Positions 23,615-38,416 of a DNA stretch of 64,000 nucleotides are shown one piece after another. Each line of letters starts with the position of its first letter. Within the stretch, counting starts at the first letter, position 1. Source of the DNA: Candidatus Omnitrophota bacterium (lineage in GTDB: Bacteria; Omnitrophota; Gorgyraeia; JABMRG01; JAFGKX01); NCBI GenBank assembly GCA_043797125.1, contig JAZDPX010000013.1, positions 73,180 to 137,179 on the forward strand, read 5' to 3'. The notes beneath the pieces are model-generated. The model saw only the letters and a program-made list of their open reading frames with translations. It was not told the origin of the DNA and did no database searches. The position numbers and the translations under genes are program-made.

Positions 23615-25021
23615 TCAAGGTTTTTCTTCTGTTTGCGGCGGCTGTTGCGGAGGTTCTTGCGGGGCAGCCTCTTCTTTTTTAAGATCAAGGTTTGTAAGAT
23701 TTTCAAATATATTGCTAAAAATCCCTTTTCTAATCGAAAATACGGCGTCTTTGCCGCGCAATCTTGCGATGTATGTTTCCCCTTTTTTAACAACATCGAT
23801 TGCTAAAGTGGTTGCATCCTTGTTTTCTATCTCGAACGAATACGCCAGCATATCCTTGGATGCATCCGCATAGTTCTCGTTAAAAAGAATCTTCTCAACC
23901 TCAAAACCTTTTAATTTATCGATATAGCTTGTATTTTTCTGTACCAGGGCTTCATCAAGTTTATAAACTTCGTTTTCCGCGCTAACAGATACGGATTTCA
24001 AGTTATCTTTGTTTATCTTCAGCGGGTTATCTATAAAAAATTTGGATGTATCTATATCCAGCTTATCAATTGCGTAGCTGCGCAGGATATAGGCGTATCC
24101 GTCTTGAGTCTTGGCGTATCTATCCTTGCCGTCTTTTTCGGTTGCGTTGCCCAAAATAATCTCTATCGGCTTTTCCTGGCCTTCCAGCACAACCTTAAGG
24201 TACGGTTTTTCAAAGCCCCGGCCTTCGGCGCTTTCTAGGGCAATGGCCTCTTGCGCCTTTGCCTCTGTCATGGCCTTAAGCGCATTTTTTATTTTTTCCG
24301 AATCAATGTTAAATAAGGGCTCTTGCCCGACCGCCACCCAGCGCTTAAGGTTTCTTTCCGGATCGAGTTCTTTCTTAAGATCCGCGGTTGCTATTTCAAC
24401 ATCCTGCTGCCTGCGGATTATCTTTATTGATTCTATTTTTTCGGTATCAAATTTGGCAACAGTCAAATCAATCCACGTGTCCGCATTAATGGTGGCGTCT
24501 TTGGGTTCTGTGTAAATATCAAGAAATGAATAAACATCCTTATCCGTGATATAAACTTCTTCCGAGCTTCCTATTCTCAGGAATGAGCTTCCCTCGCCGG
24601 GTTTTTCCATGCCTATAAAAAACACCTGGTATGGTTTTGAATCCTTATCAAGTATAGATATCGAAAACGCCTCGTTATCAGCAATCTTGTAATCTGAAAA
24701 GAGGTTTTTCGAATTAGAGCGCATTTCTCCCTGCAATGACGCAAGATCTGTTATAAATTTTTCTATTCTTTCGCTCTGCGCCATCATATTACCTTTGGAA
24801 GGAAGGCGCCATTGAGCGTCTTTTTTCTCAAGCGTTAAAAGGTTCTCGTTTTCGCCTTTTTTAATCTGGATTCCGTAAATTAAAGAAGGATCGATGGTAA
24901 TCTGAAGGCCCTTGTACTCCTGTTGCGCTAATTCGGGTTTCATAAAAATCTTTTTGGCGGATAATATCGCCAAAAGGGTTATTAGTATAACTCCTAAAAA
25001 TATTAAATGTTTGGTCTTCAT
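23615..25021 (-). CDS. Membrane-anchored hypothetical protein (DUF4340-like partner of GldG-type ABC systems).
   Basis: 468 aa. N-terminal TM MKTKHLIFLGVILITLLAILSA. Pro/Gln-rich C-terminus. Positioned directly after the ABC-2/GldG fusion, as is typical for DUF4340. Confidence 0.35.
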   Translation of the reverse strand: MKTKHLIFLGVILITLLAILSAKKIFMKPELAQQEYKGLQITIDPSLIYGIQIKKGENENLLTLEKKDAQWRLPSKGNMMAQSERIEKFITDLASLQGEMRSNSKNLFSDYKIADNEAFSISILDKDSKPYQVFFIGMEKPGEGSSFLRIGSSEEVYITDKDVYSFLDIYTEPKDATINADTWIDLTVAKFDTEKIESIKIIRRQQDVEIATADLKKELDPERNLKRWVAVGQEPLFNIDSEKIKNALKAMTEAKAQEAIALESAEGRGFEKPYLKVVLEGQEKPIEIILGNATEKDGKDRYAKTQDGYAYILRSYAIDKLDIDTSKFFIDNPLKINKDNLKSVSVSAENEVYKLDEALVQKNTSYIDKLKGFEVEKILFNENYADASKDMLAYSFEIENKDATTLAIDVVKKGETYIARLRGKDAVFSIRKGIFSNIFENLTNLDLKKEEAAPQEPPQQPPQTEEKP

Positions 25022-25034
25022 ATTATTTAAGCCG

Positions 25035-27509
25035 CTACGCTTGAAGGCTTTTTAAGTACAGCCACTTTGTGCGCTTTCTCATAAAAATCCTGAAAGCCCC
25101 GATAACGCACAACGCCACAGGCAATAAAAATGTCGTGAATATTCTCCACCAGGCCTTGGCTATAGTTGATATCTTTTTTGTGGAGCGGTCCACCTGCTGT
25201 TTGCTTCTTACCTCAATAAGCTGCTCGCCCAGGGTAATCGCGTCAATTGAATTGATAAAAAATCCCAATTGCCCGCCTTTTGTAAAAAGCTCTCTTGTAA
25301 ACATCATTGTGCAGCCTGTCAGCACCAATTTGCCCGGGGCAGGCGAAAGCGCCACGTTTTCCTTTGGTTTTTCATAGCTTTCTTCTTCCGCGGCCTCCTC
25401 TTTCGGCCATTCCGGGACGCCTTTGCCTTCAAACGCGTCGGGAAACTGCCCCTGCACCAGAACAGCCAGCGGAATGCTCTTTCTTTTATCAGGCGGCGGC
25501 ATATTAAAGTCGTCGTTGGTAAGCTCGCCCTGGTGAAATTCCGCCTGCCACGAATCCTCGCTTGAGGTAAAAAGTGTTTTTGAGGCAAGGTTTAATGTTG
25601 AGAGTTTCGCGGAATCGACGACAACAGCCGTGCCCCAGAGGTAAAACATGGTGGAAAGCCTTGATGTTATGGATACATCCTTGTTCATTTGGTCTGATAT
25701 AATCTTCACCTGAATAGGCAGTTTTACAGGCGCGCTAATAGGTATTACGCCGAATAACTTACTGCCCGTAAGGCTTACTATATCGACCTGGGAATCCATA
25801 AGGAAATCTTTGCTTACGCCAAGGCCCCATTTTTCAAGTATGTCTTCGACCTGCGGGTTTTTATCAACCGAAGCGACTCTTATGCCCTGCTGGGAAAACG
25901 AGCTGTATTCAAAATTGTATCTTTGAACCGCCATAAATACCGAGCCGCCGTTCACTAAAAATCTATTTATCTCGAATCTTTGGCGCTCGTTGAGGTCTCT
26001 GGGCTCTATGATAATAAGAGTATTTGTGCCTGCCGGTATCGGTTCTTCCTGCGTAAGCTTTATACGGGATACGGTGTAGCCTTCGTACTCCAGCAATTTA
26101 GGAAGAAACTCATACTCATCTTCCCTTAGCTTATCAACCTGGTCCTGGCCCAAGCTTGCCAATATCTGTTTCATAGACGGGTCAATAAACCTTTCCTCGT
26201 ACGGAGCGACCAGGGCAACGGAAGGCTTTTTAGCCAAAGTCATCTTATATATGGTTGAGATGACAATGTACTCTAAATCATATATATGGTCAGCCGTTAT
26301 TCTCGGTATGACTTCTTCGGGCTTTTCCTTATACGCTATGGATATGGCCGAATAAATAAGCTTTACGCCTAATTCGTCGGCCTCTATGCTTTGCACCTGA
26401 AACGGCCGTATGCCCTTTTTCTCGATAGATTTTTCCAGCGACTCCTCCTGGCCCTCCTGCGTAACATTGGCTGCCTCCATATGAAAAACCTTATAGTCAA
26501 AATTGCCCTTTGACGCCACCTTTAGCTCGTCGAGCTTGTCCCTGATGTCACGCTCCAGGTTTTTCATTCCTGTGGGCATCTTATCCGAGGAGGAGATAAA
26601 CAACTTCGCCGTAGCAGGCGCTTTTAAACCTTGCAGGATTTCTTTTGTCGCCTTTGATATGGTGTACATCTTTCCTTCTGTTAAATCCGCGCGGCCTATG
26701 GGCATGTCCGAGAATATAAAATTAAACAGCGCGAAAATCGCAACGCTTATAAGAACGGCTGTGGTAAAAAACGTTTTTGATTTTGGCTTTAATCTCGTTT
26801 CCAGCCAGAAAGTATTAAGCGCCAGGAATATCGCTGTCCCGATAACAATATATAATACGTCGCGGATATCTATGACTCCCTTATTAAAAGCGCTGAAATG
26901 CTGCGTAAGGCCTAACGAGCTTCTTAAGAACGATCCTAGCCCGGGTATCCAGCCATCTATGGAGCCTGCGGTGAAATCCGTGCCTAAAAGAAACAGCCCA
27001 AAACAAGCCACCATTCCTATAATCAAAGAGACAATCTGGTCTTTGCAAAACCCTGAAACAAAAATTCCTATTGAAAGGAAGAGGCTGCCCACAAGAATTG
27101 CGCCTATATATTGGCATATAATAATGCCTATGTCCGGCTTTCCAAGGATTGCGATCATTATGGGTATGGTGACTGTGGAAAGAAGCGCGGTTATATAGAA
27201 GACCAGGCTGGCTAAAAATTTACCCATTACAAGCTCCTGCGTCTTGACAGGAAACGTAAGTAAGAGTTCCAGGGTATTGCCTTTTCTGTCTTCGGCCCAT
27301 AGGCGCATTGTAACCGCGGGCAAAAACACGCAAAGTATAAGCGGTAAAGCATAAAAGAATCTTCTCATGTCGGCGATTGAAATTATGAAAAACTCCGTCA
27401 TGTATACCCCGCCTGATATAAGGAGAAATACTATTATAAATATATATGCTATCGGCGAATTAAAAAACGCCTTTATTTCGCGTTTGAATATGGTAATTAT
27501 GTTTCTCAT
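25035..27509 (-). CDS. Fused ABC-2 family permease and GldG-like (ABC-type uncharacterized transport system) protein.
   Basis: 824 aa. N-terminal about 270 aa with six TM segments (ABC-2). A large periplasmic domain and a C-terminal TM. Translationally coupled (4-nt overlap) to the upstream ABC ATPase. Confidence 0.55.
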   Translation of the reverse strand: MRNIITIFKREIKAFFNSPIAYIFIIVFLLISGGVYMTEFFIISIADMRRFFYALPLILCVFLPAVTMRLWAEDRKGNTLELLLTFPVKTQELVMGKFLASLVFYITALLSTVTIPIMIAILGKPDIGIIICQYIGAILVGSLFLSIGIFVSGFCKDQIVSLIIGMVACFGLFLLGTDFTAGSIDGWIPGLGSFLRSSLGLTQHFSAFNKGVIDIRDVLYIVIGTAIFLALNTFWLETRLKPKSKTFFTTAVLISVAIFALFNFIFSDMPIGRADLTEGKMYTISKATKEILQGLKAPATAKLFISSSDKMPTGMKNLERDIRDKLDELKVASKGNFDYKVFHMEAANVTQEGQEESLEKSIEKKGIRPFQVQSIEADELGVKLIYSAISIAYKEKPEEVIPRITADHIYDLEYIVISTIYKMTLAKKPSVALVAPYEERFIDPSMKQILASLGQDQVDKLREDEYEFLPKLLEYEGYTVSRIKLTQEEPIPAGTNTLIIIEPRDLNERQRFEINRFLVNGGSVFMAVQRYNFEYSSFSQQGIRVASVDKNPQVEDILEKWGLGVSKDFLMDSQVDIVSLTGSKLFGVIPISAPVKLPIQVKIISDQMNKDVSITSRLSTMFYLWGTAVVVDSAKLSTLNLASKTLFTSSEDSWQAEFHQGELTNDDFNMPPPDKRKSIPLAVLVQGQFPDAFEGKGVPEWPKEEAAEEESYEKPKENVALSPAPGKLVLTGCTMMFTRELFTKGGQLGFFINSIDAITLGEQLIEVRSKQQVDRSTKKISTIAKAWWRIFTTFLLPVALCVIGAFRIFMRKRTKWLYLKSLQA

Positions 27510-28249
27510 AGGGGTGTCTTTTGCTGTTTTGCGTTTTGCGCGTCTTTGGCAAGAAGCCCGATAAATGCCTTTTCCAGCGTTTCGCTGCCCTGGGTTACTT
27601 CCTTTATAGTGCCGTTGGCAATAATGCGCCCGTCATTTAGAATAACCACCCTGTCTGCCAGCGCTTCAACTTCCTGTAATATATGGGTTGAAAAAATAAT
27701 TGTTTTATTTGCAGAAAGTTTTCGGACAAGCTCTCTTATGCTGATAATCTGTAATGGGTCCAAACCGCTGGTGGGTTCATCAAGGATAAGAACATCGGGA
27801 TCGTGAATAAGCGCCTGGGCCAGGCCTACCCTCTGGCGATAGCCTTTGGATATCTCTGAAACGCCGTGTTTCCATATCCCGGATAAGCCGCAGTTTTCTT
27901 TCACCCACGTTAATCTGTCTCTTAATTTTTCGGATGAAAGGCCCCTTGCCTTTCCTATAAACGTGAGGTATTCATCCACAATCATATCGTCATACAAAGG
28001 AACTGCCTCAGGCATATAGCCTGTAAGTTTTCTTACTAAAAGAGGCTGCAGCGTTATGTCGTGGCCGTCAATTACAGCCGTGCCTTTGGTGGGATATAAA
28101 TAGGTGGTTAATATGCGCATCAGGGTGGTTTTGCCTGCGCCGTTCGGCCCAAGCAGGCCAAGGATCTTTCCCTTTTCCGCGTTGAAAGAGACTTTATGAA
28201 GGGCTACGGTCTTACCATAGTTTCTTGTTACAGACTTAACCTCTATCAC
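27506..28249 (-). CDS. ABC transporter ATP-binding protein.
   Basis: 247 aa. Walker A GPNGAGKTT, signature-like ISKGYRQRVGLAQAL, Walker B LILDEPTSGLD. Confidence 0.9.
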   Translation of the reverse strand: MIEVKSVTRNYGKTVALHKVSFNAEKGKILGLLGPNGAGKTTLMRILTTYLYPTKGTAVIDGHDITLQPLLVRKLTGYMPEAVPLYDDMIVDEYLTFIGKARGLSSEKLRDRLTWVKENCGLSGIWKHGVSEISKGYRQRVGLAQALIHDPDVLILDEPTSGLDPLQIISIRELVRKLSANKTIIFSTHILQEVEALADRVVILNDGRIIANGTIKEVTQGSETLEKAFIGLLAKDAQNAKQQKTPL

Positions 28250-28324
28250 GCTGGCTCCTTGTGTTGGCTATCTTATCTATATATATTAGAATTCTACAAA
28301 ATTTTTTAGTTTTGTCAAGTGTTT

Positions 28325-29986
28325 TCACTTATACTGTATTATTTCTTTAATTGTAAATTCTTCCGGCGTTTTAAAATCTGCTTTCAGAAGAGAATATTTA
28401 AATTGCCCGTCATGCCTTGAAAATTGCAGCTTTGATTTATGAAATTTTTCAAAAGACCCCTTTTCCAAAACTACCAGCTTCGGGCAATCTAACCTTTGCG
28501 AAAGCCTTTTTAACTTATATTCGATATTAACCCTGCTTAAATTATCCTCCATGCTCATTAAAAAACCCTTTTTTTGGGAATGAGTTGGCTCGCCTATAAA
28601 TTCTATCAAAAAAGAATAATGCGGCGGTATCTTGCGTTCAAGGCAGCAGCAGAAAAATTCCATATCAAGGCCTGTTGTTTCCCTTGCTTTGTTCATCGCG
28701 TCAATCACGTGGCTTTCATACAGCTTCTCGCCTGTCACAGATGAAACATTTTGCGCCTTCTGGATAAATTCAATAAGCGGCGTTTTGTTATATAAGCCTA
28801 CGACCCTTATTATGTCAGCTATGTTATAACGATAAAGCCCTGAAGGCGTGGTAAGATAAATGCAATACTGTTTATCTTTTTCCAGCTCGCTTACTGTTAA
28901 ATATTGCTGTTTTTCTTTTTTAATGTCTTCTTCAATCACAAATTCATAAAAATTTGAATCAATCGTAAGAATTCCTGCGTGGCCCTCATCCCAGCGCGGG
29001 ATGGAGCAGCGCGCTTCTGTTGAAAGATATCCAAAATCCCGCACCTTTGTTTTGGCCGGAAAATACTTCAGTAGCTCGTCGATAAATATGCCTACCGTTC
29101 CTCCCTTCCAGCAGTCAATCAATGCCAAATTCGGCCAGAAGTCCTTTGGCATGAGCGCGCCTGATTGCGCAAGCATGCCTTCCAGCTCTTTTGCCCTGGC
29201 AGGATTGGGCTTAAGCGTCTTTTCTATTTTTTCCCTGATATCCTCGGTGATATAAAAAGACTCTTTTAGCGTACCGTCGTTAATATCTTTGATAATATCT
29301 TTAGCGTGTCTTTCTATCTTTTGAAAAAGAATGAGTATGGTTAAAGGGTTCATGGTTGCGATGGTGGTAACATCATGCTCAAGCCCGAGCCGCAAAATCG
29401 TGTAATAACGCGCGTCGTAGTTTTCTATGCAAAAGACTTCGTAAGGCAAAATATACTTGCTGCGTATAATCCATGGTAAATTTTTATACGCATGCCCGGA
29501 CTCCGAACCATAGGGCATGCCGGACGCTGTATAACCTTCTGTTGCAGAGTTTACAATTGCCAGCACCTTGCCGTTGAACATATCGGGGTGATCTGCGTTG
29601 GCGTAATAAAGCCATATGTTCATTACCTTTGCTCTTTTTTTGCTGGAATATTCTGTTACAGGGATAAACTTTGGTCTGTTCGTAGTGCCCGAGGTAATAC
29701 CAAAATACAGGGGTTTGTCTTTTATTAATATGTTTTTTTCTTTCCTTAGCATCCTCCTGATAAAGGGTAGCAGGGTTTCATAGGTATTGACAGGCACTTT
29801 TTGCTGGAAATCTTTAATGCTTTTTATTGAAGAAAAGTTGTATTTTTTGCCGAAGGCTGTATCTTTATTTTTTCTTAAAATATTAAAGAGCACCGTTTCC
29901 TGCGCTTTGGCCGGGTTTTTTGTTTTTAATTCAAAGCGCGCGGCTTCAAGAGCAAACGACTTCATTATAAGGTTTATGATATTCAT
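28325..29986 (-). CDS. GH3-family acyl-acid amido synthetase-like (adenylate-forming) protein.
   Basis: 553 aa. N-terminal GH3 motif YFGITSGTTNRPKFIPVT, matching the F/Y-x-x-SSGTT-x-G-x-x-K-x-IP consensus. Size and layout consistent with bacterial GH3 homologues. Confidence 0.55.
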   Translation of the reverse strand: MNIINLIMKSFALEAARFELKTKNPAKAQETVLFNILRKNKDTAFGKKYNFSSIKSIKDFQQKVPVNTYETLLPFIRRMLRKEKNILIKDKPLYFGITSGTTNRPKFIPVTEYSSKKRAKVMNIWLYYANADHPDMFNGKVLAIVNSATEGYTASGMPYGSESGHAYKNLPWIIRSKYILPYEVFCIENYDARYYTILRLGLEHDVTTIATMNPLTILILFQKIERHAKDIIKDINDGTLKESFYITEDIREKIEKTLKPNPARAKELEGMLAQSGALMPKDFWPNLALIDCWKGGTVGIFIDELLKYFPAKTKVRDFGYLSTEARCSIPRWDEGHAGILTIDSNFYEFVIEEDIKKEKQQYLTVSELEKDKQYCIYLTTPSGLYRYNIADIIRVVGLYNKTPLIEFIQKAQNVSSVTGEKLYESHVIDAMNKARETTGLDMEFFCCCLERKIPPHYSFLIEFIGEPTHSQKKGFLMSMEDNLSRVNIEYKLKRLSQRLDCPKLVVLEKGSFEKFHKSKLQFSRHDGQFKYSLLKADFKTPEEFTIKEIIQYK

Positions 29987-29987
29987 A

Positions 29988-31097
29988 TTATTTAATTAAT
30001 TGGCTTTTCTTCGTGTATTTTCTTAAAACTTCTTCCTTTATTGTAACCCCCAAGCCGGGATTAGTCAATGCTCGCGCAATGCTGTTTTTGGGGGTTAAAT
30101 CCTCTACGATAATATCCTCTTTTAAAATAAACCTTGCGTATGAGCCTTCTAAAAATTTAAAGCCGTTGACAGCCCCTGCCAGGTGCCTGCCTGCAGCCGA
30201 TAAAACGCCTGTTTCTCCTACGTGGCAGCCAATCTGAAAACCGATATTATAATCCTGCGCGATTTTTATAATATCAAGACTGCCGAAAATGCCGCCGCAT
30301 TTAGAGAGCCTTATATTAAACATATCGCAAGCCTTCATTTGCGCCAGTTTTAACGCGTCGGCTTTAGTGCACACTGACTCATCCGCTATAATCGGCTCAT
30401 CGCAGGCATCCGCAACTTCCTTAAGACAAGTAAAATCGTTCTTCGGCGTAGGCTGCTCTATGCAGGATATATTAAATTTTCTAAACTTTTCTATCATCTC
30501 CAGCGCCTTATATTTATCCCAGGCGCCGTTTGCATCCACCCTTAAATCAACGGCCTTTAACAGGCTTCTGCATAGCCTAAGCCTTAGAAAATCGTTTTTC
30601 AATCCTACTTTAAGTTTCACAAACTCGCATTTGTGTCTTTTTGCGAGCAGGCTTATCAAGGCTACTTTAAGGGGCGCCTCTCCCGATATAACAGCGCTAT
30701 AAACAAATTTGGTTTCCTGCGGGCCTCCTAAAAGCTCATATACGGGTTTGGTAAAAACTTTGCCAAGGCAATCCAAAAACGCTATTTCTGTTGCGCAGCG
30801 CGCTTCAGCTTCTGTAATTTGTATATTTTTTATAAACCGCGTTGAAGCGTCTTGATCTTTTATTTCCACGCCTATAAGCCTTGGCGAAAACGCGGTTAAG
30901 CTGTCAAAAACCATGCCTTGCGTATTGCCTGTCACATAAGGCCTTGGTAAAGATTCTCCGAATCCTGTTATCTTATTATCCAGTTCGATTTTAACAAATA
31001 TACTTTCGCTTATGGTGCGCTTTTTTAGCGAATGTTTAAAAGCGCTTTTAAGCGGGATATCGGCTTTAAATATTTCTACCTGCGATATGCGTGCCAT
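29988..31097 (-). CDS. Enolase-superfamily MR/MLE enzyme: dipeptide epimerase, o-succinylbenzoate synthase or N-acylamino-acid racemase-like.
   Basis: 369 aa. KxK motif FVKLKVG, metal ligands in LRVDANGAWD and CIEQP, capping domain MARISQVEIFKADIPLKSAF. Confidence 0.7.
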   Translation of the reverse strand: MARISQVEIFKADIPLKSAFKHSLKKRTISESIFVKIELDNKITGFGESLPRPYVTGNTQGMVFDSLTAFSPRLIGVEIKDQDASTRFIKNIQITEAEARCATEIAFLDCLGKVFTKPVYELLGGPQETKFVYSAVISGEAPLKVALISLLAKRHKCEFVKLKVGLKNDFLRLRLCRSLLKAVDLRVDANGAWDKYKALEMIEKFRKFNISCIEQPTPKNDFTCLKEVADACDEPIIADESVCTKADALKLAQMKACDMFNIRLSKCGGIFGSLDIIKIAQDYNIGFQIGCHVGETGVLSAAGRHLAGAVNGFKFLEGSYARFILKEDIIVEDLTPKNSIARALTNPGLGVTIKEEVLRKYTKKSQLIK

Positions 31098-31102
31098 TCT
31101 TT

Positions 31103-31936
31103 TTAGGTTATCCTTACCTTTATCCAGTCAACAATATACTGCATAATTTCTTCGGGGCGCTCTTCGAATAAAATAATATGGTGGCAGCCTTCATAAATCT
31201 TCATTGTCTTGTCATTTGAAAGGGCCTGTTGGAACCAGCTGCTTGCTGCTTTGACATCGACGATATCATCAATGCCCGCCAAAAGAAGCAAAAGCGGCAC
31301 GCTGACATTGTGGGTGGCCTCTTTAAAATCGCGGCCCATCCTGAAAATCTCAAGATAATAGCGCGCTGATACATAATGAAGCCTTAAGGGGTCATTTTTG
31401 ATAAAATCTATGTATTTTTCGTTAGCGGTAAACATATTGTCTTCGATGGGGATTTTGAACTCCTTCTGCGGCTTGAAAAGCCCAAAAAGCAAAATGCCTA
31501 ATTTTGCCAACAGGGAAAATTTTAATTTATTTCCAATTGAGGGAGAAAGCAGCACCAGGCCGTCAACCGCCCTGGGATAATATAAAAAGAAATTAACGGC
31601 AATCTTGCCGCCAAGGCACAGGCCTGCTAAAAACACCTTGGCTTTAGGGTGCTCTGTGCGCACAAGGTCCAGGAATATTTCAATATCATCAAAAAGATTG
31701 CGGTAGTTGTATACGTGGCCGCGCTGGTCCCTGTTTAGGCCTGAGCCTCGCCTGTCAAATGCATACACATTAAACCCGCCATTATTCAAAAATACAGCCA
31801 AGTTAGAAAACCAGCCCATGTGGCTCTCCAGCCCGTGTAGATAAACAACGCACGCGGCGTCTTTATCCGCCTTCCAGCTGCGGTAAAACAGTTCTAAATT
31901 GTCGTTGGTCCTGAATTTCTTTATAGCATCTTCCAT
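31103..31936 (-). CDS. Alpha/beta hydrolase (lysophospholipase/monoacylglycerol-lipase-like). Cys occupies the nucleophile-elbow position.
   Basis: 277 aa. VVYLHGLESH...FDRRGSG, nucleophile elbow G-L-C-L-G-G in place of G-x-S-x-G, C-terminal HHIILFEE histidine. Confidence 0.6.
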   Translation of the reverse strand: MEDAIKKFRTNDNLELFYRSWKADKDAACVVYLHGLESHMGWFSNLAVFLNNGGFNVYAFDRRGSGLNRDQRGHVYNYRNLFDDIEIFLDLVRTEHPKAKVFLAGLCLGGKIAVNFFLYYPRAVDGLVLLSPSIGNKLKFSLLAKLGILLFGLFKPQKEFKIPIEDNMFTANEKYIDFIKNDPLRLHYVSARYYLEIFRMGRDFKEATHNVSVPLLLLLAGIDDIVDVKAASSWFQQALSNDKTMKIYEGCHHIILFEERPEEIMQYIVDWIKVRIT

Positions 31937-31938
31937 GT

Positions 31939-33189
31939 TTAACCAAACTCTACAAACATAATATTTACAAGATCCGGCACCTGCCTATTGATAAAGAGGT
32001 CGTAAAAATGTATATAATCCCTCGCTGCCCCTGCCACGATTGCCAAGGCAATAATTGCGACCGCTATATAGAAATAGGTTCTAGAAAATTTTAGTTTTAA
32101 AAATGAAGCCATGTGCCAGGCCCCCAGGCCGCCCAATAGATAAAAAGGCCCGTATACACAGGATATATATCTTAAATTCTTAAAGTGCGCAGGCGCCGTA
32201 AGAATAATAACAAAAGCTACTATAAAAAACACAAGCCCGAAATAAAGTTTTTCATTTTGCCTCTGTAAAAACGCCGTTATAATTCCTATTAATCCAAATA
32301 CGGTGCAAACAGGGCTAAGAAGCCAAAACCCGGTTATAAAATAATACCATGGCCCGTTTTGGTATGTTACCGCGTATGTGTTGTTTTGAACAGCTCCTGA
32401 CATATGAATGAGAATTTTAAAAAAGTCTCTCGCGTCGCCTGTGGCAAGCCCGATTATCAAAATGCTCATAACTACCGATGCCATGCTTAACGCTGCCAGC
32501 AAAAATACCGCTTTTAAGGATTTTTGATTAAACCACGCAACCACCAGGATCCAAATAACCAAAAGCCCGAATATGGTAATGCTTGAACGGTCTTTTATCA
32601 GCATAGAATATATTCCAAAAATAAAAAACAGCGCATACCAGATCTTTCTTTTGTGGTTAAGCGATATCTCGCAGCAGAAATACACTAGCGCCAGGCTAAA
32701 AAAACCTACTACTCCGTCCTGCCAGACACGCCTTGCTATGGCAAGCTCAACCGGAGAAACAGCCATAAAAACAATGCTGCATAACGCTGCCCACCGATTC
32801 AAAAATCTTAAGGCCATAAACGCCAAAAGCGCAAGCGAAAGCACGCTGAAGAAAAGCGAAATATGGACAAGGGTTTTTTCGTCAGTAGAATTTAATAGTT
32901 TCATCAGGCCTGCACATAAATAGATATATCCTATTCTTATCGGGGGCGGATATATCCACATCTTTTTGTCCGCATGATTCTGCGCCACCAGCGCCTTGGT
33001 GGCGCTTAAGCCTTGTGTGGATATTGTGCTGGCATGGTAGGTATAGACGCGTTCATCCGGGGTCCTGTTCTTAGCCTCGGGGTTAAATAAACGCAAAAAT
33101 ACACCTGCGCCTAATGCGCATGCTAACAACAAAACAAAAATAATAAAGATTATTTTCTGCTTATCCATTTTTTTAGCCGGCGCTATCAA
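31939..33189 (-). CDS. Polytopic membrane GT-C-fold glycosyltransferase (ArnT/PMT-like, polyprenyl-phosphate-sugar dependent).
   Basis: 416 aa, about 11 TM segments. First extracytoplasmic loop carries RTPDERVYTYHA (DE motif). 4-nt overlap with the upstream GT2. Confidence 0.45.
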   Translation of the reverse strand: MIAPAKKMDKQKIIFIIFVLLLACALGAGVFLRLFNPEAKNRTPDERVYTYHASTISTQGLSATKALVAQNHADKKMWIYPPPIRIGYIYLCAGLMKLLNSTDEKTLVHISLFFSVLSLALLAFMALRFLNRWAALCSIVFMAVSPVELAIARRVWQDGVVGFFSLALVYFCCEISLNHKRKIWYALFFIFGIYSMLIKDRSSITIFGLLVIWILVVAWFNQKSLKAVFLLAALSMASVVMSILIIGLATGDARDFFKILIHMSGAVQNNTYAVTYQNGPWYYFITGFWLLSPVCTVFGLIGIITAFLQRQNEKLYFGLVFFIVAFVIILTAPAHFKNLRYISCVYGPFYLLGGLGAWHMASFLKLKFSRTYFYIAVAIIALAIVAGAARDYIHFYDLFINRQVPDLVNIMFVEFG

Positions 33190-33935
33190 GCGGGTTTTTT
33201 AAAAAGCTGGAAGCGGACTATTTTTGTGTGCTGGAGGATATATTTAATCATGACCCAAATGGTCTGGATTCCGTATGCCAGGCTTCTTCTGAAATTTATC
33301 GATGAGGCTTCGGGGAAATAACGCGTGGGGATGGGGATATCTCCTACCCGAAACCCGTCATATATAGCCTGCACAAGGAATTCCGTATCAAATATAAAAT
33401 CATCCGAATTATTAATATAGCTTATTTTTTCTATAACCTCTCTTTTATAGACCCTGAAGCCGGAATGAAAATCGCCTAAATTCTGGCCCAGCACCATGTT
33501 TTCCAGCGTGGTCAGAAAACGGTTGCTGATATATTTATAAACGGGCATACCCCCCTGCAACGCTTCGCGGCGAGTCCTGATTCGCGAGCCGATGATAATA
33601 TCGCATACGTCTGTGGTAATAAAACCTATGGCAAACGGTATTACCCTCGGGTCATACTGGTAATCAGGGTGAAGCATAATTATTATATCTGCGCCGGCTA
33701 AAAGAGCCTGTTTGTAGCAGGTCTTTTGATTCGCGCCATAGCCTTTGTTTTTCTCGTGCACAAAAGTTGTAATTCCAAGGTTCTCCGAGATGATTGCGGT
33801 CTTATCAACACTGCCGTCATCCGTCAGAATGATCTTATCTACAATGTTGTGCGGTATATCGTCAAATGTCCGCTTAAGCGTTTTCTCCGCGTTATAGGCA
33901 GGCATGATAACAACGATTTTTTTGCCGTCAAACAT
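33186..33935 (-). CDS. GT2-family polyprenyl-phosphate glycosyltransferase (DPM synthase/ArnC-like).
   Basis: 249 aa. VVIMPAYNAEKTLKRTFDDI, DxD-type LTDDGSVDKT, HPDYQYDP. Confidence 0.7.
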   Translation of the reverse strand: MFDGKKIVVIMPAYNAEKTLKRTFDDIPHNIVDKIILTDDGSVDKTAIISENLGITTFVHEKNKGYGANQKTCYKQALLAGADIIIMLHPDYQYDPRVIPFAIGFITTDVCDIIIGSRIRTRREALQGGMPVYKYISNRFLTTLENMVLGQNLGDFHSGFRVYKREVIEKISYINNSDDFIFDTEFLVQAIYDGFRVGDIPIPTRYFPEASSINFRRSLAYGIQTIWVMIKYILQHTKIVRFQLFKKPA

Positions 33936-34014
33936 ATTAAATCCTTTAGTTATACATAGTCTATTATAACTTCAAAAATAACAAATCCCAAGAAAAAAAA
34001 TAAATGTTTTGCCT

Positions 34015-34947
34015 TTATTTCAGGTAAGGCTGGATGATTAGTTTTTGCGAAGGTTTCTTCTGGTCCTTCGGTTTTTGGGAATTGTCTGTGTCGCCGGTTA
34101 TTTGTTCTTTAGCCGCAGGAGGACTGGTTGTCTTGATAGGTTTTGGCGGCATGGGCGGCTTGGACTTCTGCTGGGGCTTCCCCATTTGCGGCATGGCTTT
34201 TCTTTTTTCCAGCCTTCTTTCGATATTGCGCTGCATTCGTTCTTTTCTAAAATGAGCGCCCGGCTGCATCTTTCTTTTGTTTATAACATTGCGCGCGCGT
34301 TTTACAACATCGCGTTTCATCATCTGCAGCTTTTGGCGCCTTACATCAGAAAACCTCTGCGGCATTAAGGGCCTTTGGAATTTTTGTATTCTGGTTGAAT
34401 ATCCGGATGAGACTACTGTTTTATCAGGCATGGGGCTACCGTCTTGATTAAACCCTTTGACATAAACATCCCCGTCAAGAGATTCCACATCCGTACCTTC
34501 ATCGCTGACCTTTGTTGTCCATGATGTGCCTAAGACGCCCGCGACAGTCGTAGGGGTTCTTATTTCAAATGAACTTCCCTGCGGCAGGTTATCCAGTGTC
34601 GTAAACGCTTCTCCTTCGGACAGCTCTATTTTCTCGCCTTCCTCTAAAATAATAGTTGCCAGGGCGTTGGAGTCCAGGCGCAGGACGTTGTCTGCGTCTT
34701 CATCAAAGGCTAGTTCGGCGTAAGAGTTATCCGCGGTTTTTATTTTGTCGCCGGGGGAAAGAAACATATCCTCCTCGGCGTCTTCGTACGCCTGCTCGGG
34801 CGCCGGGCATACCTGCACAGAGCCTGATATTGCCACAATTTCGACCACAGGTTCCTCTGGTTTTCCTAATTCCTCCTGCGCAAAAAGAGCCCTTGAAGAT
34901 AAAAAGAATATAAATAATAAACAGGCTACTATTGTAACGTGTTTCAT
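34015..34947 (-). CDS. Secreted protein with FecR-like domain and Pro/Lys-rich C-terminal tail.
   Basis: 310 aa. Signal MKHVTIVACLLFIFFLSSRALFAQEE. LSPGDKIKTADNSYAELAFDEDADNVLRLDSNA is FecR-like. C-terminal KPQQKSKPPMPPKPIKTTSPP. Confidence 0.4.
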   Translation of the reverse strand: MKHVTIVACLLFIFFLSSRALFAQEELGKPEEPVVEIVAISGSVQVCPAPEQAYEDAEEDMFLSPGDKIKTADNSYAELAFDEDADNVLRLDSNALATIILEEGEKIELSEGEAFTTLDNLPQGSSFEIRTPTTVAGVLGTSWTTKVSDEGTDVESLDGDVYVKGFNQDGSPMPDKTVVSSGYSTRIQKFQRPLMPQRFSDVRRQKLQMMKRDVVKRARNVINKRKMQPGAHFRKERMQRNIERRLEKRKAMPQMGKPQQKSKPPMPPKPIKTTSPPAAKEQITGDTDNSQKPKDQKKPSQKLIIQPYLK

Positions 34948-34959
34948 GTTTTCTCCTTA

Positions 34960-35054
34960 GTAACAGTTCGGCCATTGTAAGCATCTCGACTCGGACGTAG
35001 CGGAGGCTTAAGCCTCCGCTACGTAGGGAGAACTTCCCGGAGCTGAACCATTAC
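34960..35054 (-). repeat. Palindromic MITE/REP-like element, full-length copy in inverted orientation.
   Basis: gtaacagttcggccattgtaagcatctcgactcggacgtagcggaggcTTAAgcctccgctacgtagggagaacttcccggagctgaaccattac is the reverse complement of the 14845-14940 architecture. Confidence 0.85.
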
Positions 35055-35140
35055 TCTCCTTGCGGCTTATGGCGTTTCTTTTTTATATTATATCTTCTGG
35101 GTTTGGAAAAAGAAAGGGAAATCCGATTATAGGTGGATAG

Positions 35141-38100
35141 TTACGCGGCAGTGCTTATTTTTTCCGATACGTCTACGGGGTCTTTAATTTCGTTCTGCTG
35201 TTTTGCCATTTCTTCGTAATAAAGTTTAACCCTGCTAAGGTAAATTAAAAATTCTATAAGGCCCTGCCTATTTTCGCTATTAGCGAGGTCTTTTGTTTTT
35301 AACATGGCGAATTCTACTTTTCTCTTAATAAACCCTTTCTGGCAACTATTGGCAAGGGCGCGGGCTATTTCATAAGAATAAAGCCCGTGTAGATATTTCG
35401 AGGTGCAGCCATCGTACGCTATTTTTCTTCCGCCTGTCTTTTTAACGGTGTCCAATGTTTTTATCGCTAAGGCTATTATCTCAAGCCCTATATCAGCCCC
35501 GCCGAAGGACTGCTGATAAGAAATATGGCCCTCTTTTGGGAATTTAGTCAATTTATCCATAATGCCGAAGTGCCTGGTGAACCGCTCTATTAACTCGAGT
35601 TCAGAATCAACATTATCATTTATGCACATGTTCACGCTTTTGCCATTGATTCTGGCATGATGCATAAGGACTACGGTTTCCTTCGCGGAATCATCGAAAT
35701 CCGAAATGTCTTTGGTTAAATCATAAAGCCTGTCCATCGCTTCCTGGATTTTCGCGTAGGCCTTGTCGCTTTTATCCCGGTACTCTTCGGTTGACTGGCG
35801 CGCCGCGGCTTTGTATTGCGCTTCCTCTACAAACAGCGAAAACAACTCGTTCACTACTTTTAATATTTTAACTTTATCTTCGTCGGTCATTGTCATGCTG
35901 TTTTTAAACTTGGGCAGGTTATTTAACTGCTCTTTGGTTATTTGGCCTGGCCCATAATTATTATTTTCATCTCTAAGGTGTATTGATTCTTTTACAAAGG
36001 CAGGGCCTTTTTCAACGTCTTTTAAGTCGTCTTCGAACATCTTATTTCTTTCTTTTTCATCTCTAACAGGCAAATCATCATCGCCAAATTTCTTGCTTCC
36101 GGAATTATACATGGTGAAAGCGGCGCCGTTTTCACCTTTTAGGAAGTCTTTGTATGCCTCAACATCCGGCTGAAGATACGGCAGATAGGTATCCGCTACC
36201 CACCTTAAATACACCTCTTCCTTTTGTATCTGGGGGTCTTTCGCTTTTCCGCTAGAAACAATTCTTCTAAAACTGTGCCTTTTCGGGTCATATTTAACTT
36301 TTCTTATATCAGCGGCAGTAAACCCGACTTTTTTGTAATAATCTTCTACCTGTTTTTTTGCCTCATCGGTAAGTTCTAAGCTGTCCGCCTTATTAAGCAT
36401 GGCGTTAAGGGTGCTGAACATCCCATACCACATTACAAAATCCTCAAAAAATTGACGTAATTTATCAAGCTCAAGTTCATCCTGCTCTCTCAATTTATAT
36501 CTTATGACTAAATTCCCTCTGGCTGTTTGCTCTTTGATGATTGCCTGTTCCGCTTCTATATCCGCCTTTGTCATATAATTATCGCTCATGATGAAATAAA
36601 CCCTGGAGCCGGGCTCATCTTTAACATATTTTAAAGCATGCACCATTTCCTGCGTAGTCGTGCAATAAGCCTGAAAACCCACCGCGTAGCCGGCAATTTT
36701 ACCTTTGCCTAAGCTTTCAGGGGCTATCTGACTTTTCCCTTCCTGGGTTCTCCCATAGGCAACCCTGCTTGGGGCAGCGATGCATAGTTTGCGCGGATTA
36801 AACAAGGTAATGAGTGCGGCGAGTTTCTTAGACGGGTTGTCATTTCCGCTTTCAAGCTGGAATTGCGCTACTTCGCTTCCTGACTCAAGCTGTTTTTCAA
36901 CATCAAAACCCATTGCGACATTATAGGCATAACCGTTCGGGCTTCCGCCCTGGAAACGGCCGCCATGATTGCCCGCCATCCACACCGTCTTAACGGGAAA
37001 GGTTTTAGCGTCATATTTTTTGGCGAATATTTTTCCTAATATATCAAAACGGCTGCCTGTCTTTTTTTCAAGATCCCCTTCTCCCGTGACAAAAATTGTC
37101 CGTTTTAACACAATAGAAAATATTCGTTTTTCTGTCTTATTCATTCTGCCGATGATATCATTATCATCATCAAACCAGGATCTGCCATTGTAAATTTTCT
37201 TAATCATGCCGTTGGCTTTGGTTGTTCCTTTGTCATCGCCATAAACATACCTAAAATACGTTTCAATAAGAGCGCTGACGCAAAGCTGGAAATTGGCCAT
37301 GGTTTCATCTGTTGTGCCTGATTTTGACCCTGCTATGACCATAATTCTCACTGCTTCTTTAATTTTTTCCAATTCTTCAAGCTTGCCTTTGTCTGTGCCG
37401 GCTTTGCTTGTGCGTAACATTGTAAGCCATTCTTTTATAAGCTTGGTATAATTTACATTTAACCTGTCAAGCGGCACCATTTTCCGGTTCGGAAAAGGAT
37501 TGCGCACGCCAACAGCCTGATAAGAACAAGCGGCTTGCCCTCCTATTCCATCGCCAATAACAATAACATCGCCTTCATAATTTTCAGAATCCCCATCCAT
37601 TAGCTGATCATTGAATTCCTTTATTATGTCAATGGCTTCATGCATGGGCGGGCCATAGCGGGGCTTTTTTTTCTTAGATATATATTTTTCATAAGGCTGA
37701 TTGATATAGCCCCCTGCCCTTGGGTCATATCTTCTTGCTGTATGAAAACTTTTTGTTGTTACCTTTACCAGGTCGGAATTTAAAAAATCTAAAACATCGG
37801 GCAAATCAACGTTATCTCCGGGATAAAATTCTAACCGCCCGCCCATGCCTTTATCAAGTTTCAACATGCCTAACAGCGGTTGAAAATTAGGAAATGCCCA
37901 TTCGGCGCCCGCCTCCATTAAGGAGGCCTTTCTGTTCAGCTCGGAAGCGATGCCGAATCCGGAAATGCCTGCGGCTTTTGCCGCTTCCATATCCCTTTCC
38001 ATATCGCCAAATAAAATTGCCTGTTCCGGAGATGCTCTGCACACATCCAAAACCCCTTTTATTGCATTACCAAGCCCCTGCTGGCCCTTAGTAAACACGC

Positions 38101-38416
38101 TTATTAATATACCTTTTTGTTTTAAATAGTCGAGCGTTTCTATTGTAGCGGGTGACTGCGCTATGGTCCGGTCTACACTAATGAACACTACCTTAATTTC
38201 TCCATTATTTATCCCGGGGATTATCTGCAGCGCGGGCTCGGCATATCCTGTTTCAAAAATCCTCTCGAATTGGATGTCGCCTGCGATTTCTAAATCTGCG
38301 GACATGCCCCTTAAGGTATCCGTTTGTATTGGCGCGGCCCAGGAAATGGAATTCGCTATTAATAATATAGATAATAATAGTGATAGTATCTTCATATAAT
38401 ATGGGTAAGCGGACAC
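35141..38416 (-). CDS. Large (1091 aa) exported hypothetical protein with an N-terminal HAD-like region and central SIS/phosphoglucose-isomerase-like motifs. Tentative.
   Basis: Signal MKILSLLLSILLIANSISWAAP. HAD-like IKVVFISVDRT...ILFGDMERDMEAAKAAGI. DVIVIGDGIGGQAA and VIAGSKSGTTDETMANF resemble PGI/SIS signatures. Confidence 0.4.
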   Translation of the reverse strand: MSAYPYYMKILSLLLSILLIANSISWAAPIQTDTLRGMSADLEIAGDIQFERIFETGYAEPALQIIPGINNGEIKVVFISVDRTIAQSPATIETLDYLKQKGILISVFTKGQQGLGNAIKGVLDVCRASPEQAILFGDMERDMEAAKAAGISGFGIASELNRKASLMEAGAEWAFPNFQPLLGMLKLDKGMGGRLEFYPGDNVDLPDVLDFLNSDLVKVTTKSFHTARRYDPRAGGYINQPYEKYISKKKKPRYGPPMHEAIDIIKEFNDQLMDGDSENYEGDVIVIGDGIGGQAACSYQAVGVRNPFPNRKMVPLDRLNVNYTKLIKEWLTMLRTSKAGTDKGKLEELEKIKEAVRIMVIAGSKSGTTDETMANFQLCVSALIETYFRYVYGDDKGTTKANGMIKKIYNGRSWFDDDNDIIGRMNKTEKRIFSIVLKRTIFVTGEGDLEKKTGSRFDILGKIFAKKYDAKTFPVKTVWMAGNHGGRFQGGSPNGYAYNVAMGFDVEKQLESGSEVAQFQLESGNDNPSKKLAALITLFNPRKLCIAAPSRVAYGRTQEGKSQIAPESLGKGKIAGYAVGFQAYCTTTQEMVHALKYVKDEPGSRVYFIMSDNYMTKADIEAEQAIIKEQTARGNLVIRYKLREQDELELDKLRQFFEDFVMWYGMFSTLNAMLNKADSLELTDEAKKQVEDYYKKVGFTAADIRKVKYDPKRHSFRRIVSSGKAKDPQIQKEEVYLRWVADTYLPYLQPDVEAYKDFLKGENGAAFTMYNSGSKKFGDDDLPVRDEKERNKMFEDDLKDVEKGPAFVKESIHLRDENNNYGPGQITKEQLNNLPKFKNSMTMTDEDKVKILKVVNELFSLFVEEAQYKAAARQSTEEYRDKSDKAYAKIQEAMDRLYDLTKDISDFDDSAKETVVLMHHARINGKSVNMCINDNVDSELELIERFTRHFGIMDKLTKFPKEGHISYQQSFGGADIGLEIIALAIKTLDTVKKTGGRKIAYDGCTSKYLHGLYSYEIARALANSCQKGFIKRKVEFAMLKTKDLANSENRQGLIEFLIYLSRVKLYYEEMAKQQNEIKDPVDVSEKISTAA

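Follow-up and report, generated by a model that had tools for sequence, protein, structure and literature searches.

A GH3 cassette of Omnitrophota and other bacteria, joined in one genome to a glycosyltransferase pair: a possible route to amino-acid-conjugated envelope lipids

The one characterized bacterial GH3 enzyme that we found in the literature on bacterial GH3 function is OlsH, described in 2025. In Singulisphaera acidiphila this enzyme joins a free (3-hydroxy) fatty acid to ornithine with ATP in the ornithine-lipid pathway, while its operon partner OlsI, an alpha/beta-hydrolase, O-acylates the product (PMC12493201). The same report notes thousands of uncharacterized bacterial GH3 homologues, mentions no enolase-superfamily partner for them, and does not give the nucleophile or catalytic residues of OlsI (PMC12493201). 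Here we describe a five-gene unit at positions 28325-33935 of a 64,000-nucleotide stretch (the window) of Candidatus Omnitrophota bacterium DNA (assembly GCA_043797125.1, contig JAZDPX010000013.1), in which a GH3 gene follows genes for an alpha/beta hydrolase and for an enzyme from the enolase superfamily's MLE subgroup (hereafter MLE), which are themselves preceded by genes for two glycosyltransferases, GT2 and GT-C. We propose, with a probability of roughly 0.4, that the unit encodes an acyl-amino-acid (amino-lipid) pathway resembling OlsH/OlsI but with additional chemistry at the alpha-carbon, coupled here to envelope glycosylation; as part of this proposal the five genes would form one transcription unit of two modules, Cys-hydrolase/MLE/GH3 and GT2/GT-C. 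In order of transcription the genes are:

33186..33935, minus strand: soluble GT2 glycosyltransferase, polyprenyl-phosphate-sugar-synthase-like, 249 aa
31939..33189, minus strand: membrane glycosyltransferase of a minimal GT-C type, 416 aa if started at the TTG 33189, or 409 aa (NCBI call) if started at the in-frame ATG 33168
31103..31936, minus strand: alpha/beta hydrolase of monoglyceride-lipase/lysophospholipase type (Hydrolase_4), Cys-Asp-His triad, without signal peptide, 277 aa
29988..31097, minus strand: enolase-superfamily enzyme, MLE subgroup, Arg in place of the beta6 Lys (R263), 369 aa
28325..29986, minus strand: GH3-family ATP-dependent acyl-acid amido synthetase, 553 aa

An earlier note on this DNA, made by a model from the sequence alone, had described five co-directional, tightly spaced or overlapping genes and had assigned each to an enzyme class. 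Both descriptions hold: the open reading frames (ORFs) fill exactly the interval given above, with successive intergenic distances of -4, 2, 5 and 1 nt and flanking gaps of 79 nt (5' of GT2) and 75 nt (3' of GH3), and Pfam supports all five class assignments. Homologues exist for every one of the five proteins, which are thus products of real genes rather than chance ORFs.

A GH3 cassette shared by several phyla

The N, M and C domains of the GH3 family (PF03321, PF23571, PF23572) were matched by the window protein at 266.4, 73.2 and 64 bits, respectively (cut-off 23.6). Its nucleotide-binding motifs, sought as TSGTT-, YGSSE- and YRxGD-type sequences following PMC12493201 and established knowledge, read GITSGTT, YGSESG and YRYNIAD, and their key residues (T98 S99 G100, G160 E162, R386 Y387 D391) are invariant in 20 orthologues; the three domains and the motifs together confirm the call of a GH3-type adenylating amido synthetase. 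The only structures matched in the PDB were those of plant GH3 enzymes, JAR1 being the best at 125 bits. A protein 100% identical to that of the window is annotated in a metagenome-assembled genome of Candidatus Omnitrophota, and dozens of orthologues 50-62% identical to it bear that label too. The curated OlsH model (NF052613) scores 138.6 bits against the window GH3 and 121.7 bits against a paralogue, GH3b, of one of its closest relatives (L004), relative to a cut-off of 620.

The genomic context of this enzyme was surveyed with a GH3-alignment scan of one genome per species, which returned 77 loci; these were searched by tblastn with the window proteins and with proteins from neighboring genes, and their 1108 predicted neighbor proteins were clustered, giving 82 GH3 genes for analysis with the window counted. 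An MLE gene adjoins GH3 in 24 of the 82, and in 23 the MLE gene family is a called neighbor. Of the MLE-linked loci that extend far enough upstream to be evaluated, 15 of 20 contain the hydrolase and 15 of 19 a short-chain dehydrogenase/reductase (SDR), the usual order being SDR-hydrolase-MLE-GH3. The earlier note had regarded the association of GH3 with such an enzyme as unusual for bacteria; its recurrence across several phyla does not bear this out.

The surroundings of the core differ by clade. In the closest relatives, whose GH3 proteins are 57-60% identical to that of the window, genes for a GNAT, a GH3 paralogue, a 116-aa protein, SDR, hydrolase, MLE and GH3 are followed by radical SAM and, further on, MFS genes. 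In other clades the run comprises a UbiE-like methyltransferase, SDR, nitroreductase, hydrolase, MLE and GH3. Either the MLE-GH3 pair or the whole cassette was found in metagenome-assembled genomes (MAGs) labeled Planctomycetota (L071, L075), Dehalococcoidia (L070, L072), Vicinamibacterales (L076) and Pseudomonadota (L073), and the cassette is spread over many Omnitrophota as well as Planctomycetota, Chloroflexota, Acidobacteriota and Pseudomonadota MAGs, at least five phyla in all. In a neighbor-joining tree of GH3 sequences the MLE-linked members form the basal branches, with a large Omnitrophota paralogue clade without MLE nested inside them.

Gene fusions join several of the same partners. 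Hydrolase and MLE are fused in P0267 and P0269, both with the Cys nucleophile, and in P0314, which has Ser; hydrolase and SDR are fused in L073; and a heme-oxygenase-like diiron domain (PF14518) is fused to MLE in L070, L072, P0288 and P0332. The association was also recovered in the reverse direction: of the contigs reached from diverse MLE representatives with the beta6 Arg, four were informative and three of these have GH3 next to MLE, three further look-ups being uninformative on account of short contigs. Literature searches on GH3 in combination with MLE or enolase genes, and on bacterial GH3 function, returned only the OlsH work and no account of the cassette.

Several side observations concern these loci. 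The GH3 paralogue clade without MLE accounts for 58 of the 82 GH3 genes (L001, L003-L005, L023, L032, L043 and 51 further loci); in the closest relatives its member GH3b lies just upstream of the cassette between the GNAT and the 116-aa protein, the latter without a Pfam match, and elsewhere the paralogue occurs near an arginase-fold gene or a fatty-acyl-AMP-ligase/carrier-protein fusion. The Arg-type MLE of the Dehalococcoidia MAGs carries the PF14518 domain at its N-terminus (L070, 8085-12880; L072, 8133-11665), and in L070 the genes after GH3 encode a monooxygenase resembling flavin N-hydroxylases and a solute-binding protein of family 5. Outside Omnitrophota, a fusion of a cyclic-nucleotide-monophosphate (cNMP)-binding domain to a patatin domain sits just upstream of the cassette (L073, 8085-9965; contig of P0267), and a cNMP-binding protein of about 150 aa just after GH3 (P0267 contig; L086, 9820-10278; L087). 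The presence of cNMP-binding domains beside the cassette suggests its regulation by a cyclic nucleotide in these organisms. Lastly, many loci from MAGs titled 'uncultured Planctomycetia bacterium' (binchicken, SRP co-assemblies; L001, L003, L008, L012, L014, L016, L019-L021, L023 and others) contain the same cassette and the same 50-60% identical GH3 as loci titled Omnitrophota, and the Planctomycetia label of these co-assemblies may be imprecise.

The glycosyltransferase pair and its tie to the cassette

The GT2 protein matches PF00535 (Glycos_transf_2) at 78 bits. Its best NCBIfam matches, PpgS (66 bits), AglJ (65), a dolichyl-phosphate-hexose transferase (61) and ArnC (33), fall below cut-offs of 325-529. 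As all of them are polyprenyl-phosphate transferases, the window protein is likely, on sequence grounds, to be of the polyprenyl-phosphate-glycosyltransferase type.

The GT-C protein narrowly passes the Pfam PMT_2 threshold (31.3 bits, cut-off 26.1), and a scan with NCBIfam models, ArnT included, matched none. It has some nine or more transmembrane (TM) segments and no large periplasmic domain. Its family is small, with 8 homologues, 26-41% identical to the window protein, among 5.8 billion proteins. The 'DE' loop motif that the earlier note had pointed out proved robust, since D38-E39, in the first outer loop after TM1, is invariant in all nine family members. An AlphaFold (AF2) model of the protein (pLDDT 84, pTM 0.86) was matched by Foldseek to STT3, AglB, PglB, ArnT and Pmt4 with probability 1.0 and TM-scores of 0.5-0.65. 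The PMT_2 match, the invariant D-E pair and the modeled fold together indicate a genuine, if minimal, GT-C. Of the subtyping called for in the earlier note, the choice between ArnT and PMT could not be made, as the fold search singled out no subtype among ArnT, PMT and STT3. Profile matches and fold nevertheless make it plausible that GT2 and GT-C are, as had been suggested, a polyprenyl-phosphate-sugar donor synthase and its transferase.

Two side observations may be added. The GT-C homologue P0128 lies directly after a 669-aa tetratricopeptide-repeat (TPR) protein (L079). The product of 42815-44548 on the plus strand of the window, put forward in the earlier note as a TMTC-like O-mannosyltransferase that could share the lipid-linked donor, matches only TPRs in Pfam. 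Ahead of these repeats about 11 TM segments are predicted, the first of them trailed by an FLCDDNN motif, and this N-terminal membrane domain was assigned to no family.

Whether the pair belongs functionally with the cassette was judged from the same 77 loci. The five-gene synteny on which the earlier note had rested its check is not conserved in relatives, an outcome which that note had named as refuting its reading: hydrolase, MLE and GH3 stay together, while tblastn found orthologues of the window GT2 and GT-C in none of the 77. A lack of connection between the pair and the cassette, at first concluded from this null result, was revised when Pfam and NCBIfam scans revealed ArnC/ArnT-like genes after GH3 in four loci. 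A 229-aa GT2 directly follows GH3 in L018, L055 and L058, and follows a GT-C in L019; GT-C proteins of 521-563 aa are encoded in L018 (GH3, GT2, GT-C) and in L019 (GH3, GT-C, GT2). The attached genes are spaced by 0-1 nt or overlap by 4-8 nt, and the curated models that match them most strongly are those of ArnC (167 bits) and ArnT (132 and 111 bits). They are not orthologues of the window pair: the attached GT2s are 24% identical to the window GT2 (L018 comparison), and the attached GT-Cs could not be aligned with the window GT-C.

A profile of the attached GT2s matches six of the 1108 neighbor genes, five of which lie in an operon-like run with an MLE-linked GH3, adjacent to it or two to four genes away. 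By our own arithmetic, a GT2 near GH3 in 5 of 24 MLE-linked genes and in 0 of 58 without MLE corresponds to a one-sided hypergeometric p of about 0.0016; the five cases represent only some three independent lineages, and the statistics are therefore weak. We regard a functional link between the pair and the GH3 cassette, as the earlier note had supposed in placing both in one pathway, as plausible, since non-orthologous glycosyltransferase genes have been joined to the cassette in three arrangements, that of the window and two others; the evidence is modest.

A competing explanation is that the two modules share a promoter by chance, the pair serving ordinary envelope glycosylation unconnected with the cassette. 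The absence of its orthologues from the 77 loci would be expected in that case, as would the occurrence of GT-C homologues in other contexts and the GNAT, GH3 paralogue, 116-aa protein and SDR which the closest relatives have at the same position. The gaps of at most 2 nt between the modules, the unrelated GT2/GT-C genes abutting the cassette in two further arrangements, and the near absence of GT2 genes of the attached type from the remainder of the 1108 neighbors make chance association unlikely in our estimation.

Active sites of the MLE and the hydrolase

The MLE protein matches MR_MLE_C and MR_MLE_N of Pfam at 150 and 36 bits. In single-sequence comparisons the structures matched best, at 130-143 bits, were three dipeptide epimerases (3q45, 1jpm, 3jva) and the N-succinyl-Arg/Lys racemase 2p88, followed by muconate cycloisomerases, N-acylamino-acid racemases and o-succinylbenzoate synthase (OSBS, about 52 bits). 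A profile built from 50 diverse clade members ranked these groups alike, with 270 bits for 3jva and 2p88, a range of 230-270 bits for the dipeptide epimerases and racemase, and 117 bits for the OSBS 2opj (Thermobifida). The question posed in the earlier note, OSBS or epimerase, is thereby decided in favor of kinship with the dipeptide epimerases and N-succinyl-Arg racemase: the protein falls apart from MenC, and a look for men genes across the 64-kb window found none.

The active-site mapping that had also been suggested was carried out by alignment to 1jpm, Bacillus subtilis YkfB. The KxK motif (VKLKVG, K161/K163) and the metal ligands D188, E214 and D239 align with K160/K162, D191, E219 and D244, in keeping with the proposed membership of the enolase superfamily. 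At beta6 the correspondence fails, NIRLSKCGG (R263) standing where 1jpm has NIKLMKAGG (K268), with the second-shell Lys at +3 (K266) retained. Every one of the 25 MLE genes found in the vicinity of GH3 in related loci has N[IV]R[LIV][SC]KCGG, while a second, unlinked MLE of L076 reads NLKISKVGG. The 150 best-matching representatives from 1.8 billion proteins clustered at 50% identity include 133 with the motif, of which 123 carry the Arg; in the alignment of 50 clade members, R263, K266, K161, K163 and the metal ligands do not vary. Arg occupies this position in none of the PDB matches whose alignments were shown. A second departure concerns the D-x-D region, RFDFD in 1jpm, which aligns with LEGSY (E-G-S-Y) in MLE; in YkfB this motif presumably binds the ammonium group of the dipeptide. 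The dipeptide-epimerase models NF041118 and NF011708 score 129.7 and 68.6 bits, below their cut-offs of 500 and 343.

The replacement, clade-wide, of the catalytic beta6 Lys by Arg renders two-base racemization, and with it a D-configured product, doubtful. The beta6 Lys of OSBS has an electrostatic role and does not serve as an acid or base (bioRxiv 10.1101/2022.03.03.481873), so that an Arg at this position is compatible with elimination chemistry. From these residues we infer that MLE would catalyze a single-base reaction, an elimination or isomerization, rather than racemization; on account of the beta6 Arg we rejected a canonical racemase. The labels 'dipeptide epimerase' and 'muconate cycloisomerase' that proteins of this clade currently bear are probably misleading or wrong.

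These results also bear on the proposal, close to that of the earlier note, that MLE is a true epimerase, with GH3 making an N-acyl-L-amino acid which MLE would convert to the D-form, yielding a D-amino-acid substituent of the envelope. Its nearest characterized relatives, the dipeptide epimerases and 2p88, do act at the alpha-carbon of N-acylated amino acids, and the MLE and GH3 genes form a conserved pair, here 1 nt apart. Yet K268 of YkfB is one of the two bases of 1,1-proton transfer, and its replacement in 25 of 25 GH3-linked enzymes and in the great majority of representatives, together with the altered D-x-D region and the low epimerase-model score, weakens the idea of an epimerase with a possibly D-configured product to the point that we consider it rather improbable.

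The hydrolase matches Hydrolase_4 of Pfam at 182.7 bits and, in the PDB, monoglyceride lipases best (91 bits); it also resembles lysophospholipase L2 and the phospholipase BipL. The alpha/beta-hydrolase fold and the triad positions are present, with a Cys nucleophile where the class has Ser. The GLCLGG elbow of the proposed Cys-nucleophile enzyme is present, and in an alignment to human monoglyceride lipase C106 falls on Ser122 and the Asp and His on D239 and H269. The elbow Cys is kept in all cassette hydrolases, non-cassette paralogues in the same loci reading GESMGG, and is replaced by Ser in one hydrolase-MLE fusion (P0314); this interchange of Ser and Cys argues for a live nucleophile. 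The OlsI model (NF052614) gives 26.8 bits, over residues 79-133 only (cut-off 385).

The recurrent neighbors extend this picture. The best NCBIfam matches of the cassette SDR are OleD, a 2-alkyl-3-oxoalkanoate reductase (195 bits, cut-off 580), and the hopanoid-associated HpnA (184 bits). A patatin phospholipase (cNMP-regulated) is encoded immediately upstream in two independent loci, and a ketoacyl synthase, MMPL, P450, GMC oxidoreductase and acyl-CoA-ligase-like enzyme are found among further neighbors. The lipase-like hydrolase, the OleD/HpnA-like SDR, the patatin, and the ketoacyl synthase, MMPL, P450 and GMC neighbors point to a lipid-like acid as substrate.

A glycan route reads the same genes differently. 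GH3 would amidate a uronic acid, carried as a nucleotide sugar or polyprenyl-phosphate sugar, with an amino acid; the SDR would be a sugar-nucleotide enzyme, the hydrolase would deacylate as ArnD does, and GT-C would deliver the product to lipid A or another envelope acceptor. The Arn pathway itself combines an extended SDR, N-acylation, a GT2, a deacylase and a GT-C; ArnC/ArnT-like genes accompany the cassette in four other loci, with the window pair as a third arrangement; and the SDR, of the NAD-dependent epimerase/dehydratase family, also matches LegB, RmlB (dTDP-glucose dehydratase) and GalE. Since this family includes nucleotide-sugar enzymes, a sugar substrate is possible. The SDR nonetheless scores highest with OleD and HpnA, the hydrolase is lipase-like, 19 of the 24 cassettes have no glycosyltransferase genes, and the patatin, ketoacyl synthase, MMPL and P450 neighbors point to lipids; moreover, we know of no GH3 enzyme that uses a sugar acid. 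We hold this route to be about as doubtful as epimerization.

The least probable reading, to which we give very low weight, is a men-like route with the hydrolase in the role of MenH, MLE in that of MenC (an OSBS-type dehydration) and GH3 replacing MenE but coupling the acid to an amino acid in place of CoA, leading from an aromatic or cyclohexadiene acid to a secreted aryl-amino-acid conjugate: the triad of hydrolase, MLE and adenylating enzyme does mirror MenH/MenC/MenE, the MenH and MenC models match weakly, an Arg at beta6 would suffice for an OSBS-type dehydration, the beta6 Lys of OSBS being no acid/base, a UbiE/MenG-like methyltransferase is present in six extended cassettes, genes for MFS exporters were seen 3' of GH3 among the closest relatives (MFS_3, EntS-like, in L004; MFS_1 in L001), and plant GH3.12 acts on benzoates and also on isochorismate, but the clade profile favors dipeptide epimerases over the Thermobifida OSBS, all men models remain below their cut-offs (MenH 38.6 bits; TIGR01928, the best OSBS model, 104.9 bits against 200.65), MenD, MenF, MenB and MenA were not found in the window or in the loci inspected, and the hydrolase is Cys-bearing and lipase-like.

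A proposed pathway and its relation to known systems

For the amino-lipid pathway which we favor, we infer the substrates, the order of steps and the connection between the modules as follows. By analogy with OlsH, the product of the first module would be an amide joining an amino acid to a carboxylic acid, which is probably of fatty or hydroxy-fatty type; such a product is a lipid of the N-acyl-amino-acid type. The hydrolase would take an acyl group onto its Cys and either free the acid or transfer it by way of a thioester, O-acylating as OlsI does. MLE would bind the free carboxylate on Mg2+ and remove the alpha-proton with its single remaining Lys, in the beta2 KxK motif, resulting in elimination or isomerization, and GH3 would adenylate the carboxylate with ATP and couple the amino acid. 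The hydrolase, MLE and GH3 have neither signal peptides nor TM segments and are thus taken to be cytoplasmic. In the second module GT2 would load a sugar onto polyprenyl phosphate, which GT-C would pass to an acceptor at the outer face of the inner membrane; this acceptor may be the cassette product, giving a glycosylated lipid, or of lipid A type, or another. Because unrelated ArnC/ArnT-like genes are joined to the cassette elsewhere, both modules probably serve one envelope product.

Several points weigh against this proposal. Firstly, the scores of GH3 and the hydrolase lie so far below the OlsH and OlsI cut-offs (138.6 against 620; 26.8 against 385) that orthology is excluded and the precedent holds by analogy only. 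Secondly, the cassette is not uniform: the SDR common to most copies was not found in the window and has the sugar-enzyme relatives noted above, five cassettes (L055, L058, L070, L072, L076) are without the hydrolase, and neighbors outside the core vary between phyla. Thirdly, the tblastn null for the window pair, its counterparts in only 5 of 24 cassettes and the contexts of three GT-C homologues on longer contigs, namely thioredoxin/MauE genes, a TPR protein and a polysaccharide cluster, with no partner in common, all speak for a looser tie between the modules. Finally, Arg can occasionally act as a base, which leaves some room for racemization.

A bolder form of the proposal can be offered as a tentative possibility: the Arg-type MLE, the Cys hydrolase and GH3 might constitute an unrecognized multi-phylum pathway to new amino-acid-conjugated lipids, glycosylated in some Omnitrophota through a dedicated polyprenyl-phosphate-sugar/GT-C pair, in which MLE would catalyze a reaction new to the enolase superfamily, a single-base elimination or isomerization on a fatty-acid-derived carboxylate.

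With respect to the borders of the unit, two promoter-like sites were noted, each of them weak evidence, as the number of sites in a promoter/terminator scan of the region did not exceed shuffled expectation:

33963..33991, minus strand: sigma-70-like promoter match, TTGGGA-17-TATAAT, 10/12, in the 79-nt gap upstream of GT2, a possible operon start
28291..28318, minus strand: sigma-70-like promoter match, TTGACA-16-TAGAAT, 11/12, in the gap between GH3 and the gldA-like ABC gene, a possible unit boundary

Directly 3' of GH3, at 23615-28249 on the minus strand, lies a gliding-motility-like ABC system, in which a GldA-like ATPase is accompanied by an 824-aa GldF-GldG fusion of permease and auxiliary protein and by a DUF4340 protein; the system has its own promoter-like site and is not kept beside the cassette in other loci. 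Upstream, 34015-38416 on the minus strand encodes two proteins: one has a FecR domain and one N-terminal TM segment and is weakly like the Leptospira adhesins Lsa33 and LipL45; the other, of 1091 aa, is matched only over a short HAD-like stretch. Further along the same strand, in the part of the window with the lowest GC (0.37-0.39), a 2595-aa ORF (6012-13799) has the PPDK_N, mobile and phosphoenolpyruvate-binding domains spread over about 1400 residues with long unassigned stretches between them; it is about three times the size of an ordinary PPDK.

The cassette provides a second, much wider bacterial context for GH3 beside that of OlsH, reaching at least five phyla, and its partners, some of them fused, display two clade-wide active-site changes, beta6 Lys to Arg in MLE and Ser to Cys in the lipase-like hydrolase. 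It thus offers enolase-superfamily and lipid biochemistry a concrete, testable set of enzymes and a route to the function of a large unstudied clade. In Omnitrophota, a phylum of which to our knowledge no member has been cultured, it further points to an envelope component not yet described. Each of the five proteins falls within a known superfamily, and the combination of a GH3 with a hydrolase has its precedent from 2025; for the GH3-MLE association, the two clade-wide changes, the fusions and the recurrent attachment of ArnC/ArnT-like genes we found no prior description.

Comparison with described systems places the locus among four of them. With OlsH/OlsI it shares a bacterial GH3 in one operon with an alpha/beta hydrolase, and both systems occur in the PVC superphylum; it differs in the addition of an MLE-subgroup enzyme and, usually, an OleD/HpnA-like SDR, in the Cys nucleophile of its hydrolase, and in the lack of an OlsG methyltransferase. 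OleBCD of olefin biosynthesis likewise sets an alpha/beta hydrolase and an ATP-dependent enzyme that adenylates carboxylates, a beta-lactone synthetase, beside an extended SDR, and the enzymes of the Ole pathway act on free long-chain acids. In the cassette, however, the adenylating enzyme is a GH3 rather than the ANL-type OleC, the hydrolase is monoglyceride-lipase-like with Cys rather than dehalogenase-like as OleB is, no OleA is present, and the SDR, absent from the window, remains below the OleD cut-off of 580.

The second module resembles the pairs ArnC/ArnT, an undecaprenyl-phosphate-Ara4FN synthase with a lipid A transferase, and Dpm1/PMT in setting a polyprenyl-phosphate-type GT2 beside a GT-C with the GT-C fold and an acidic motif in its first outer loop. 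Unlike ArnC and ArnT, the window GT2 is matched best by PpgS, AglJ and the dolichyl-phosphate-hexose transferase, with only 33 bits for ArnC, and the window GT-C, of about 410 aa, lacks a periplasmic domain, matches no NCBIfam model and belongs to a family of nine known members; nor does the operon contain homologues of ArnA, ArnB or ArnD. For the analogous pairs in L018 and L019, ArnC and ArnT are the best-matching models. The MLE, finally, shares with the dipeptide epimerases and the N-succinyl-Arg racemase its KxK motif, its D/E/D metal ligands and, at +3, its second-shell Lys; it is set apart from them by its clade-wide beta6 Arg and by E-G-S-Y in place of D-x-D, and its gene is linked to GH3 rather than, as with dipeptide epimerases, to genes of murein-peptide recycling.

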